In this document: positions 2,354 through 19,457 of the stretch, one piece after another
Numbering within the stretch: the stretch's first letter is position 1
Layout: each line of letters begins with the position of its first letter
IMG/VR virus record: IMGVR_UViG_3300032038_000052
Span: 14,613-78,612 of that record
Length of the DNA stretch: 64,000 nucleotides
Reading direction: 5' to 3' (one strand)
Source of the DNA: a virus
Lineage: Duplodnaviria; Caudoviricetes
The notes under the pieces: model-generated
The model's database searches: none
Told to the model about the DNA's origin: nothing
Seen by the model: only the letters and a program-made list of their open reading frames with translations
Made by a program: the position numbers and the translations under genes

Positions 2354-2893
2354 ATGAGAAAAATAGTGATTGATGATATCGCTCAAATCTCAGCAGAAAT
2401 GATTGCTTTTAATAACATCGAAGGGCATCATTCAGTAGTAGTTGGTAGCTATGAAGTAATTGTAGAAATATTAAATACAATTATTAAGAATACCAATGCT
2501 GTATTTGTAAATGGTGAACTGAATATGCCAGATTCAGATGGTTATGAAAATGCATACTATCTTGAATATGCAGAAGATGAGCTTTGGGTTGATAAGATGT
2601 ATAATGAGATGCATAAGAGATATCTTACAATTGAGGCAGACAGGGTTTGGGTTGAAGATGAGTTTTCCAAGGATTATCTTGATGCTAATGACGCTAAGAA
2701 TGTGATTATATTTGAGTTTGATTCTGAAATTGAAGATTCATCTAAAGTCCCTTGTCTTTGTTTAGATGATGACGCACTTGGCTTTACTTGTTGCTACCAT
2801 AGTGAATTGGGACATGGTAAATTCAAGTATCGTGGTTCAGAAAAGCTAACGGAAGAAAAAGCTTGGGATATTGTATATAATTATTGTGATTGA
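2354..2893 (+). CDS. Hypothetical acidic protein
   Basis: 179-aa ORF with AGGA RBS and TGA stop. Confidence 0.8.
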   Translation: MRKIVIDDIAQISAEMIAFNNIEGHHSVVVGSYEVIVEILNTIIKNTNAVFVNGELNMPDSDGYENAYYLEYAEDELWVDKMYNEMHKRYLTIEADRVWVEDEFSKDYLDANDAKNVIIFEFDSEIEDSSKVPCLCLDDDALGFTCCYHSELGHGKFKYRGSEKLTEEKAWDIVYNYCD

Positions 2894-2902
2894 TATTAGT
2901 GA

Positions 2903-2932
2903 GGCTAGGTCATGTATTTATATGACTTAGCC
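2903..2932 (+). other. Hairpin upstream of the tRNA-like element
   Basis: GGCTAGGTCAT (2903-2913) / ATGACTTAGCC (2922-2932). Confidence 0.7.
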
Positions 2933-2938
2933 ATATTT

Positions 2939-2997
2939 GCTTCTGTGGCGCAATAGGTAGCGCAACTGATCTATGGTTCAAATCCATACACAGAAAT
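2939..2997 (+). pseudogene. tRNA-like element lacking most of the anticodon arm
   Basis: Acceptor-type pairing TTCTGTG/CACAGAA; D arm GCGC-AATAGGTA-GCGC; T arm TATGG-TTCAAAT-CCATA; only AACTGATC lies between the D and T arms. Confidence 0.75.
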
Positions 2998-3002
2998 TTA
3001 TT

Positions 3003-3101
3003 GAGCGGGTAGTATAAAGAAGTCATGAGCTTTATATTATGTACTATCCTATCCGGTGCATACCCGCTCTTATAATAAATAGGATAGGTGAAAGGATAGG
3101 A
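3003..3101 (+). promoter_or_regulatory. Structured leader: outer stem, inner hairpin, anti-SD and internal TATAAT
   Basis: GAGCGGGTA/TACCCGCTC stem; GTATAAAG/CTTTATAT hairpin; TCCTATCC (3047-3054) is complementary to GGATAGGA (3094-3101, RBS region); TATAAT at 3071-3076. Confidence 0.6.
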
Positions 3102-3107
3102 ATAAAT

Positions 3108-3734
3108 ATGAATAAAACAAAATAGATTGGATTAATAACTGAATTATCGTGCTAGTTATATCTTTCTTAGCTTGGGTACAATATTTGTACTCCATTATGC
3201 GAAGATTGTAGATATGACATGATTGCAGATTTTAATGGTATATTAAAAAAAATACAAGTTAAGACATGTCGTGAAAATAATAATAAGACTGGAATAGAAT
3301 TTTCAACCACTTCGACAAGAAGCAACTCTAGTGAAATTGTTAGGTAGAAATATTCAGAAAATGATGTTGATTATTTTGCGACATTCTATAATAATAAGTG
3401 CTACTTAATTAAGAATATCTATAGTAGCACATGTATTACATTACTATATGATGGGAATATCACTGGAAATGAGTGTATTCCAAAACATCTTTCTGATTAT
3501 GAATGTGAAAAACAGATTAAAAAAATATTAAATAATAATGAAGACACATTACCAAAAAGAGTAATATGCCAATATGATAAAAATTGGCAATTAATTGCAA
3601 CGTATAATTCCGTAAGGGGTGCTGCAAGAGCACTTGGAGACGAATTAAAAAATGCACATATTGCCGATGCAATTAATGGTAGACGCAAAATGGCATATGG
3701 ATTTTATTGGAAAGAAAATATAGATATATAGTAA
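3108..3734 (+). CDS. PD-(D/E)XK homing-type endonuclease (I-Ssp6803I/PDDEXK_5-like) with C-terminal NUMOD1-like DNA-binding domain; TAG=Gln; 208 aa
   Basis: Missing from the ORF track. With 5 TAG read as Gln: KQIGLITELSCQLYLSQLGYNICTPLCEDCRYDMIADFNGILKKIQVKT...DVDYFATF, then VICQYDKNWQLIATYNSVRGAARAL...INGRRKMAYGFYW; TAA stop. Confidence 0.8.
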
Positions 3735-3760
3735 TTTAATGATTAAAAGGAGGTGCTACG

Positions 3761-4957
3761 GTGGCCGTAGTAAAACAAGAAAAAAAAGTCCCCATAGCAC
3801 AAGTTCGGGCAGAAAATGAAAAGATGAAAAAGTTACTCGAGGATGGAGTAAGATGCATTGTCTGTGGGGTAATGAAAGACAAAAGCAAATTTTATGTGAA
3901 TACGAACCCTCGTTGTAAATGTGAAGTTGGGTGTGTTTGTAAAGAATGTGCTAGGAAAGTGGCTTTACAAGTTGATGATGACGGAATCGAGCATGGCGTT
4001 ACTAAAGAGTCTTGCATAGAGGCACTTAAACTTTTAAATAAACCGTTTGTTAATTCCGTATGGGATTCAAGTGTATAGGAATCTGATAACCTTGTTGCTG
4101 GGAAAACAAAGTCAAATCCTTGGGTCGCCTATATTAAAAATATCGCAATGGTCCAATGGGTTGGCATGGACTTCTTCGATTCTGATATGTTCAAGAAAGG
4201 TGTTGTTGGTGGTGGACAATATGTTGTTAAAGAGCCTACTACTGCTGAGGATTTGTCTGAAGATGTAAGAACTACTTATGAAATTAATAAGAAGACTACT
4301 CTTCGTTTTCTTGGCTATGATCCATTTGAAAATGAACCGCTTGAAGAACAGCCAATCTTATATGCTAAATTGGTAAGTTACTTTGATGATTCTGTAAGGG
4401 ATGACGGCTTAAAGCTTGAAGCCGTTATAGAGATTGTTCAAAGTTTCAAAGATATAAAAACAATTAATGATGCTATCTCAAAATATAAGAAACAGCTTGG
4501 GGAAAATCCGGCTGTCATTGCGACAATTAAGTCTCTTGCTGATACTAAGCAAAAGATGATTAATTCTGCACTAGCTCTTGCAAAAGACAATGGAATATCA
4601 GTCAACCATAATAACAGTAAGAGTAAGGGGGCTGGAACTCTCAGTGGTATTATTAAAGAGATGTCTGAGATGAATCTTGATGACATAGAAATTAATACAT
4701 TTGATTATGAAACAAATGCTGCCATATCTCAGATTATGGAGGCAAATTTTAAAAATCAGATGGAACAGCTTAACCCAGACGAAAATGATTGGGAACGAGA
4801 GGTGCAGCATCAAGCAAAATTGCTACATAAATTATAGAAAGAAAGGGACGACGCTGTCGAATATTGTAGGCTACTCAAAAAAGAAAACAAAGACTTAAAG
4901 GATTTTCTTATTGAGAAAAAAATAATCGATGAAGCGTTAAATGTGATAGATGAGTGA
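3761..4957 (+). CDS. Zn-finger-containing packaging-region protein (putative terminase small subunit); TAG=Gln
   Basis: GTG start with GGAGGT RBS; CIVC...CKEC motif; ORF-track pieces 3761..4078 and 4148..4837 share a frame; TGA overlaps the TerL start. TerS assignment is from position only. Confidence 0.7.
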
Positions 4958-14594: not shown

Positions 14595-15164
14595 ATGGAT
14601 TTGACGAATGAACAACTTCAAACTCTCCTTCAGTATAAAACTGTAATGGATGATGACAATGTGCGTTTTAAAGAAATTATTAAAAAAAGTTTGATAGATG
14701 ATCCATTGATTATCTATTTGCTTAATAACAAGGAGTTGGAGAGCGTCGAGGCAGATCCTAGCGACTATCTCGGCGTTAACATACTCCCAGCTTTTTTAAT
14801 TCATCCTACATAGCACAATGTCTAGAACTTTATTTGTTATGAGACATCATGGAAAGAAATGCCAAGATATAATGGGAATGCTACAAAGTTACAACAGATT
14901 ATTTTTTATGTTTTGTGTGAAGAAAAGACAAACATAGAAAAACGTACTGGTATAGCACGCCATGATTTAATTGGTGCGAGGATTAAAGATATATTTAATT
15001 GGACCAACAAATTTGGTACACAATGCCATGTTGTATCTGATGTCCCATCTGTAACAGATAATGATTACGCAACAAGAACTATAACGTTTGAATTGCTTAG
15101 TGTTAATGATATCGTCAAGACGAGAAATGGTTCTTCTTTGGTGGTGAATAAGATTGGCGGATAA
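14595..15164 (+). CDS. Putative tail terminator/completion protein; TAG=Gln
   Basis: In-frame join of 14595..14813 and 14859..15164; GGAGG RBS; position before the tail genes. Confidence 0.6.
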
Positions 15165-19346: not shown

Positions 19347-19350
19347 TTCT

Positions 19351-19455
19351 ATGCGAGAAAACATAAGGAGTAATTACCCTTGTGCGAGAGTAATCCCTAA
19401 CTCTCATTTCTCGCATTTATTACAATTAGGGGTGGATTACTACAGGGAGGTAATG
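19351..19455 (+). promoter_or_regulatory. Structured leader: outer stem, inner hairpin, anti-SD and internal TACAAT
   Basis: ATGCGAGAAA/TTTCTCGCAT stem; GAGAG/CTCTC hairpin whose loop TAATCCCTAA complements TTAGGG..GATTA downstream; ATTACC(CT) complements the GGGAGGTAAT RBS; TACAAT at 19421-19426. Confidence 0.6.
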
Positions 19456-19457
19456 CT

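Follow-up and report, generated by a model that had tools for sequence, protein, structure and literature searches.

Known precedents are homing endonucleases linked to the anticodon loop of a tRNA (I-Ssp6803I) and free-standing enzymes encoded in phage tRNA clusters (SegB). I-Ssp6803I is associated with a group I intron in the anticodon loop of the tRNA-fMet gene of Synechocystis. To our knowledge, it was long the only studied member of its family, and the family was thought to be mostly cyanobacterial. A different use of tRNA genes is made by integrative elements, the attP of which carries the 3′ part of a tRNA gene. I-Ssp6803I reads a 23 bp pseudo-palindromic site (PMC3384342). SegB of phage T4 is a free-standing GIY-YIG homing endonuclease encoded in the tRNA gene cluster, and it is the experimentally shown analogue (PMC2330249) of the arrangement described here. 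That arrangement is found in a 64,000-nucleotide stretch of viral DNA, hereafter the window (positions 14,613 to 78,612 of IMG/VR record IMGVR_UViG_3300032038_000052), where a tRNA remnant lacking its anticodon arm, the stump, is followed by a gene for an endonuclease of the I-Ssp6803I family. What is new is an anticodon-less chimeric derivative of a tRNA gene for which there are matched nuclease-free alleles.

We propose that window positions 2939–3740 are the nuclease-occupied allele of a phage tRNA-Thr(UGU)/tRNA-Asn(GUU) locus. The best overall explanation is that a mobile nuclease cassette has been joined to the resident tRNA-Thr in its anticodon loop, and that the nuclease targets intact tRNA-Thr(UGU) genes. 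We give this account, taken as a whole, a probability of about 0.7. It is built on four things read directly from sequence: the anatomy of the locus, the allele pairs, the insertion sites of the nuclease family, and the independent assemblies.

The tRNA stump and its junctions

The stump and its parts, placed by a match to the Rfam tRNA family RF00005 and by fold prediction, are as follows.

2941–2996, + strand: tRNA-like fold without an anticodon arm (RF00005 match and fold)
2941–2947 with 2989–2995, + strand: acceptor stem, 7 bp (fold)
2948–2963, + strand: D arm (fold)
2964–2971, + strand: linker of 8 nucleotides (nt) (fold)
2972–2988, + strand: T arm (fold)
2996, + strand: discriminator (fold)

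The RF00005 match at 2941–2996 (+ strand) scores 31.9 bits, above the gathering threshold of 29, and spans model positions 1–71. Its E value is 1.8e-4 in a 1.2 kb search and 2.8e-6 across the whole 78.6 kb record. In this alignment, 2 nt stand where the model has the 17 positions of its anticodon arm, and the nt 8–9 linker between the acceptor and the D stem is gone. That is, neither a four-arm cloverleaf nor an anticodon is present, and ARAGORN calls no tRNA at the stump with its intron option on or off. The predicted fold has a minimum free energy of −17.5 kcal/mol (z = −2.6). An earlier reading of this DNA, made from the sequence alone, had described a tRNA with intact D arm, T arm and acceptor pairing but no anticodon arm. 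The arms are borne out by the match and the fold. The acceptor claim needs amending: all seven pairs form only when the register is moved inward by 2 nt, so that nt 3–9 of the ancestral tRNA-Thr pair with the 3′ strand. In the ancestral register, beginning at G2939, only 5 of 7 positions pair. Despite the shift, the stacked acceptor/T-arm helix is 12 bp long.

Comparison with related alleles divides the locus differently, as follows.

2939–2970, + strand: 5′ half of the resident tRNA-Thr(UGU), nt 1 to 31/32 (comparison with sister alleles)
2972–2996, + strand: cassette-borne T arm (TATGG/CCATA), 3′ strand (CACAGAA) pairing with resident nt 3–9, and discriminator (allele comparison)
3735–3743, + strand: right junction (window, L022, L030, L032 and L004 compared)

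The resident half consists of the acceptor 5′ strand, nt 8–9, the D arm, nt 26, the anticodon-stem 5′ strand ACTGA, and one loop base. It is the same as the intact tRNA-Thr of the nuclease-free locus L030 through nt 27, and its ACTGA strand agrees with the tRNA-Thr genes of L017 and L018. In general, nuclease-bearing alleles match intact tRNA-Thr up to nt 31; thus, in the second nuclease-bearing lineage, L022, the stem strand AGTCA is that of its nuclease-free partner, L032. After the 5′ half, 15 nt are missing, and the alignment permits the gap to be placed at 33–47 or at 37–51. What follows is of another origin. The T stem differs from that of the sister tRNA-Thr genes by three compensated pair differences, the 3′ strand pairs with nt 3–9 and not with nt 1–7, and this T arm and 3′ strand are common to the window, L031 and L022. 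On the right, the sequence common to the nuclease-free alleles restarts immediately after the nuclease stop codon, and neither a 3′ tRNA-Thr fragment nor a tRNA-Asn remains.

By these comparisons, the stump is a chimera of a resident 5′ half with a cassette-borne T arm and 3′ strand, and no clean internal deletion. The sequence-only reading had taken it for a plain deletion of the anticodon within one tRNA; it is in fact a junction of two sources, and the tRNA-Asn has been removed as well. A tRNA carrying the nuclease in an intron was considered and rejected for the window, as no 3′ exon follows the gene. Derivation of the stump from the phage's own tRNA-Pro or suppressor tRNA was also rejected, on sequence comparison. 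Exact and near-exact patterns of the stump, or of its T arm plus 3′ strand, had no match in IMG/VR, and patterns of the same segments had none in 185,579 species genomes. Five matches to the stump from a metagenome pattern scan were chance occurrences in GC-rich DNA or lay inside normal tRNAs.

Nuclease-free sister alleles

The gene upstream of the locus, encoding 179 amino acids (aa), has three relatives in a large protein collection; a search of IMG/VR with the same protein found none. In the contigs of two of the three, L030 and L032, there is no nuclease gene. Instead, the spacer of 237–247 nt that runs from the 179-aa gene to the YonG-like gene holds an intact tRNA-Thr(UGU) and an intact tRNA-Asn(GUU). 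The intact orthologous tRNA that the sequence-only reading proposed to look for in relatives is thus found where the stump lies, between flanks 95–97.5% identical. L030 is the partner of the window, its left flank being 97.5% and its right flank 97.0% identical. L032 stands in the same relation to the nuclease-bearing L022 (95.3% left, 97.2% right). The two lineages differ from each other by 26% in their left flanks and by 20% in their cassettes. Since each has a carrier and a non-carrier, presence of the cassette is polymorphic in two separate backgrounds. The intact tRNA-Thr(UGU) genes of L030 (4086–4158) and L032 (4079–4151) have C33 in place of the near-universal U, giving the loop CCUGUAA; the sequence-only reading had pointed out the same oddity in the phage's suppressor tRNA.

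It had also been asked whether the missing anticodon arm is an artefact of assembly or sequencing. This is next to impossible. The stump and the nuclease gene are covered by contigs of four runs, each from a different study, which show single-base substitutions and no indels, and the allele is present in two further assemblies, L031 and the 20% diverged L022. Inside the stump, three sites vary: a base of the D loop, a base of the linker, and a position where an A-to-G change keeps a U·G pair. Other contigs from the same samples match the 5′ half and leave it at 2970 into an intact Thr anticodon loop. On the yonG side, contigs of other alleles part from the window at 3739/3740; upstream of that point their sequences differ, and the tRNA-Met form of L004 is among them.

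The L022 stump (2838–2893) has the same architecture as that of the window, and neither lineage has a broken pair among the 16 of the three stems. Between the two, 0 of 32 stem nt and 6 of 24 other nt differ (p = 0.004).

The endonuclease

3108–3734, + strand: homing endonuclease gene, 208 codons (translation with TAG read as glutamine; Pfam and PHROG matches)

The gene encodes an N-terminal PD-(D/E)XK domain of the I-Ssp6803I family and a C-terminal NUMOD-like DNA-binding domain. The former matches PF11645 at residues 3–100 with 70.8 bits (cut-off 26.1; E 1.6e-19), which agrees with the nuclease type read from the sequence alone. The NUMOD-like domain scores below its Pfam cut-off (25.5 versus 27 bits). 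A profile of 18 homologues, compared with solved structures, matches only PDB 2OST, which is I-Ssp6803I (E 3.7e-10), with the catalytic motif aligned; residues E32/D33, D37, D41 and Q50-V51-K52 are invariant in the 18 homologues and align with 2OST. Membership in the I-Ssp6803I family, another claim of the sequence-only reading, is therefore supported by both comparisons. No group I intron was detected by Rfam at E ≤ 10 in window 2700–3900 or in L033, L036 and L038, nor at E ≤ 0.5 in six further loci.

The gene can be read only with TAG as a sense codon. TAG occurs at codons 6, 16, 21, 80 and 208, the first four being internal and the last just before the stop, which is TAA. The TAG at codon 16 (3153–3155) falls on Q16, which is invariant in the 18 homologues and so supports TAG = glutamine. 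In L034, an in-frame TAG at codon 50 (about 1048–1050) falls on the invariant Q50 of the catalytic Q-x-K motif. As TAG occupies invariant glutamines (Q16 in the window, Q50 in L034), an active enzyme would need the suppressor tRNA.

Insertion sites of the nuclease family

Nineteen homologues, 42–96% identical to the window enzyme, have the same two-domain architecture, and 19 further loci come from a viral collection. The next-closest nucleases are P0124 at 72% and P0125 at 57%. Homologues with 42–57% identity are located inside tRNA-Thr(UGU) genes, after nt 36 (L023, L024-27, L028/29, L033, L035-L038, L053/54). The insertion point is directly past the anticodon, between YTTGT and AA, with about 30 nt of insert before the open reading frame (ORF) and 13 nt after it; that is, a canonical insert has only about 45 nt outside the ORF. 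The ends of the insert pair with each other and covary. Both tRNA halves, the 36/37 insert, the terminal helix, and a 3′ end of ..AAUCA are found in L023, L024, L028, L033, L036-L038 and L053. In all, nucleases lie after the anticodon (36/37) of tRNA-Thr(UGU) in at least nine other phage lineages, a count of the Thr-clade members inserted within a tRNA gene that leaves aside the L034/L052 and window/L022 forms. The stem sequences of the nine tRNA-Thr(UGU) genes differ, and the insertion point is the same.

The window does not have this split-tRNA form: its nuclease stop codon adjoins the flank directly, with no 3′ half in between. For other branches of the family, the site is within a tRNA-Ser gene or next to one. 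A maximum-likelihood tree places the Thr-associated enzymes in a single group (support 90/96), apart from the Ser-associated ones, and within the tree the window and L022 join L034 with support of 98/97.

L034, and independently L052, have a third arrangement. Its order is a full-length tRNA-Thr(UGU), a leader, the nuclease gene, a short tail, a displaced 3′ tRNA-Thr fragment, and a tRNA-Asn. The leaders of both are homologous to that of the window, with the same outer stem, two hairpins and anti-Shine-Dalgarno loop. From the sequences, the cassette in these loci is one that brings a replacement 3′ half and so restores the tRNA-Thr that it interrupts. In the restored tRNA-Thr, positions 28 and 42 are mismatched, a conserved feature, and the variable loop has 4 nt. 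The window form looks like this type minus 15 nt of the replacement half, the displaced fragment, and the tRNA-Asn. In the literature searched, neither ribozyme-less PD-(D/E)XK inserts at 36/37 of phage tRNA genes nor replacement-tRNA cassettes were found.

Several other unusual tRNA genes were seen in the compared loci. In L038 (97–242), a tRNA-Glu(UUC) is split after the anticodon by a 71-nt insert without an ORF; the insert has a T arm of its own and a terminal 6 bp helix (about 12 stacked pairs), and it has a 14-nt string in common with the window leader (3010–3023), which may be chance. In L040 (673–816), the anticodon loop of a tRNA-Thr(UGU) is split by a 70-nt insert, also without an ORF. 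Immediately behind it come a leader and a Ser-clade endonuclease gene, the stop codon of which overlaps the start of a tRNA-Ser(GCU). L028 (2934–6352) has three endonuclease genes in a row within a tRNA cluster, namely a PD-(D/E)XK plus NUMOD gene inside tRNA-Thr(UGU), a GIY-YIG gene, and a 256-aa PD-(D/E)XK gene inside a split tRNA-Pro(UGG). Genes for transfer-messenger RNA lie just upstream of the split tRNA-Thr in L023 (2130–2452) and L036 (114–461), with Rfam scores of 55 and 81 bits.

The leader

The segment between the stump and the nuclease gene is laid out as follows.

2997–3107, + strand: structured leader of the nuclease gene (single-sequence folds, homologous leaders)
3003–3011/3061–3069, + strand: outer stem
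3011–3038, + strand: hairpin 1
3039–3061, + strand: hairpin 2, with an anti-Shine-Dalgarno loop at 3046–3054
3070–3083, + strand: TATAAT-like box
3081–3101, + strand: Shine-Dalgarno region

The leader is predicted to fold into two alternative structures, one of which pairs the anti-Shine-Dalgarno with the Shine-Dalgarno sequence. Homologous leaders with covarying stems are found in L022, L034 and L052. RNAalifold, run on seven leaders, recovered only 4 pairs of hairpin 1, since the automatic alignment was too poor; the architecture is therefore drawn from single-sequence folds and reading of the sequences.

Six other cassettes have a leader of the same build, which begins 3–7 nt past the 3′ end of a tRNA. 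One is the window's HNH cassette, located behind the suppressor tRNA (leader at 19348–19457); the others are in L009 (777–888), L034 (791–900), L052 (147–256) and L040, which has two (~809–900 and ~2073–2160). The recurring parts are an outer stem, a hairpin with a loop that is often AGUAAUUA(A), and a second hairpin with an anti-Shine-Dalgarno loop. The homing endonuclease genes that follow belong to different families, PD-(D/E)XK and, behind the window's suppressor tRNA, HNH. The recurrent leader matches no Rfam family.

Proposed mechanism

Target, cleavage, direction of transfer and timing are what we infer from the anatomy and the alleles. The cassette is proposed to consist of a T arm, a 3′ acceptor strand, the structured leader, and the PD-(D/E)XK plus NUMOD endonuclease, and to have taken the place of the rest of the tRNA-Thr and all of the tRNA-Asn. 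The endonuclease most likely recognizes the anticodon stem-loop region of intact tRNA-Thr(UGU) genes, as I-Ssp6803I does with tRNA-fMet; this stem-loop is pseudo-palindromic and would in that respect resemble the 23 bp site of I-Ssp6803I. In a mixed infection, nuclease-free sister phages would be cut at tRNA-Thr. Repair from the carrier genome would then copy in the cassette, homology being provided by the 5′ half of the tRNA on one side and by the yonG region on the other, at a cost to the recipient of its tRNA-Thr and tRNA-Asn.

The carrier's own genome would be uncuttable because the missing 15 nt make up the 3′ side of the presumed site. That is, if the site is the anticodon stem-loop, lack of its 3′ half would confer self-immunity. 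A tRNA-anticodon-directed nuclease in a genome that lacks the target, as the sequence-only reading had it, is thus well supported by comparison of the loci. Expression is probably delayed to late infection, since translation through the TAG codons depends on the suppressor tRNA and the ribosome-binding site can be masked by the leader.

Alternatives and a possible role of the stump

Several points weigh against this account. The assignment of the target draws on the insertion sites of homologues that are only 42–57% identical to the window enzyme, and the recognition site may differ from the assumed anticodon stem-loop. In L034 and L052, the restored tRNA-Thr has a normal anticodon loop beside the nuclease; immunity in these two would have to come from less obvious features, of which the 28:42 mismatch and the 4-nt variable loop are candidates. 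As for the age of the cassette and the direction of its transfer, a divergence of 20% would also fit old vertical inheritance with later loss. Conservation of the stump offers weak evidence only. The stem-versus-loop difference given above is confounded by the fact that the stump's 5′ half is common to functional tRNA-Thr genes, and in the cassette-borne half alone, where 0 of 17 stem nt have changed against ~2 expected, it is not significant (P about 0.1). A target other than tRNA-Thr, such as tRNA-Asn, the start of yonG or another gene, would make tRNA clusters no more than recombination hot spots. The locus does vary among relatives, and phage tRNA clusters are rich in homing endonuclease genes from several families, as in L028. 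Such a target is improbable all the same: all nine sampled in-tRNA lineages of the Thr clade are at one point of tRNA-Thr(UGU) although the stem sequences differ, and the yonG start is identical in carrier and nuclease-free alleles, so that the carrier has lost no site there.

If tRNA-Thr is the target, there is still the question of why the tRNA-like fold persists. The stump may be a selected RNA part, compatible with the mechanism above and adding a function to it. In this proposal, a tRNA-like minihelix, made of the 7 bp acceptor stacked on the 5 bp T stem together with the D/T-loop elbow, would be cut by ribonuclease P (RNase P) and RNase Z; the cuts would part the early transcript from the nuclease mRNA and give the leader a defined 5′ end. 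The register has moved by 2 nt with seven perfect pairs kept, which preserves the 12 bp helix, the portion measured by RNase P and RNase Z. Consistent with such a function are the stem conservation between the window and L022, the sole stem change in other samples, which retains a U·G pair, and the position of the same-architecture leaders directly after tRNA 3′ ends. However, recombination with functional tRNA-Thr genes confounds the conservation, the fold without nt 8–9 and the anticodon arm may be a poor substrate for either enzyme, and the association of leaders with tRNA ends could merely mirror the insertion preference of the nucleases. The competing proposal is a functionless scar of microhomology repair or illegitimate recombination, left after the cassette or its replacement half was damaged and neat only because it is recent; its chances fall somewhat below even. 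The 15-nt gap does border short repeats and the family's usual insertion point, loss of the tRNA-Asn and of the displaced 3′ fragment (both kept in L034/L052) points to general erosion, and the cassette-borne half by itself lacks a significant excess of conservation. But the allele is old enough for its cassettes to have diverged by 20% with every stem pair intact in both lineages, and the register shift needs two changes that jointly preserve a 7 bp stem. Our preferred reading of the persistent fold is the processing signal, one of the alternatives of the sequence-only reading, which we put forward tentatively and with chances a little lower than those of the scar. A tRNA-mimic decoy or regulator, acting on anticodon nucleases, synthetases or T-box leaders, is very unlikely. 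The D-loop and T-loop consensus bases of the elbow are kept; yet no anticodon loop is left to bind or cut, which also disposes of the decoy suggested from the sequence alone, the anticodon identity elements for threonyl-tRNA synthetase are gone, and nothing in the neighbourhood suggests such a system.

A broader and more speculative proposal extends the processing signal to the recurrent leaders. It is that a modular unit of tRNA handle, Y-shaped leader and endonuclease is used by the unrelated PD-(D/E)XK and HNH homing endonucleases of TAG-recoded gut phages. Host RNase P and RNase Z would free the nuclease mRNA, the leader would gate translation, and the handle might lose all decoding parts and be kept for processing alone. 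We consider such a unit rather doubtful at present.

Phage setting and neighbouring features

The phage is uncultured, and the window belongs to a viral record of 78.6 kb, which is estimated to be ~46% complete. The public runs that hold the record are mostly bovine-gut samples, and no RNA run is listed among them; two metatranscriptome runs (X19 and X20) contain no more than a small share of it. A blastn search with 5.7 kb around the locus found no match in a phage GenBank collection. The late genes read TAG as sense, one frame of 5359 codons having 107 TAGs, and the phage encodes a suppressor tRNA with anticodon CTA (ARAGORN). Genes upstream of 2893 have no in-frame TAG. The locus lies where the early genes give way to the late, TAG-recoded ones, and two features border it.

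2903–2932, + strand: terminator-like hairpin with a 13 bp stem, closing the TAG-free early genes (terminator scan)
3761–4957, + strand: YonG-like gene (PF27269), the first conserved late gene and the right homology arm

The hairpin has counterparts in the nuclease-free L030 and in L031. The YonG-like protein is 91% identical to that of L004, whereas the YonJ-like phosphoesterase, encoded two genes upstream of the locus (1141–2340) by the closest early-side gene that was compared, is 34% identical. Window 3744–3778 and L004 6432–6466 are the same over 35 nt in spite of that divergence; the stretch holds the ribosome-binding site and a 6 bp hairpin, the loop of which contains the GTG that starts the YonG-like gene.

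The spacer before the YonG-like gene (window 2894–3760) is a hot spot of variable content, as comparison with L004, L005-7, L009 and L011 indicates. It holds a tRNA-Met(CAT) in L004, a tRNA-Pro and a tRNA-Asn in L009, and no tRNA in L005-L007; a lone tRNA-Asn further upstream is another state among these relatives.

Significance

The I-Ssp6803I family is represented here by a lineage specialized on phage tRNA-Thr genes. Three states of the tRNA gene can be seen side by side, namely a tRNA split by the insert, a tRNA restored by the replacement half of the cassette, and an anticodon-less stump. Together they offer a natural series on how a selfish nuclease avoids cutting its own genome. As two lineages have near-identical nuclease-free partners, substrates for a cleavage test are ready to hand. 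The locus suggests, too, that a phage in which TAG means glutamine can lose tRNA genes, here those for Thr and Asn, to elements of this kind. If the stump is indeed a processing signal, a tRNA shape would have been kept solely for RNA cutting.

Comparison with known systems

The window locus and I-Ssp6803I have in common the nuclease fold and family (PF11645) and a tie to a tRNA anticodon loop. They differ in that no group I ribozyme was detected in the window or in the homologue inserts covered by the searches above, and in that the window enzyme has an extra NUMOD-type domain, a phage as its host, and tRNA-Thr(UGU) as its associated tRNA. The window gene also lies behind a truncated tRNA and not inside one, the 3′ exon being gone.

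In T4 SegB, as in the window, the endonuclease gene stands free in the tRNA region of a phage, and close relatives include both carriers and non-carriers. Like SegB, the window enzyme would be expected to cut the tRNA region of relatives without the gene and to be inherited with flanking DNA. The nuclease family is different, however, the carrier's presumed target is truncated and not substituted, and homing in the window is deduced from the alleles.

The L034/L052 form recalls integrative elements with a tRNA-derived attP, in that the incoming element supplies the 3′ part of the tRNA that it interrupts. Unlike those elements, the cassettes have no integrase, and their transfer would proceed by double-strand-break repair. 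In the window, moreover, the part supplied by the cassette fails to restore the tRNA, so that what stands before the nuclease gene is a stump.

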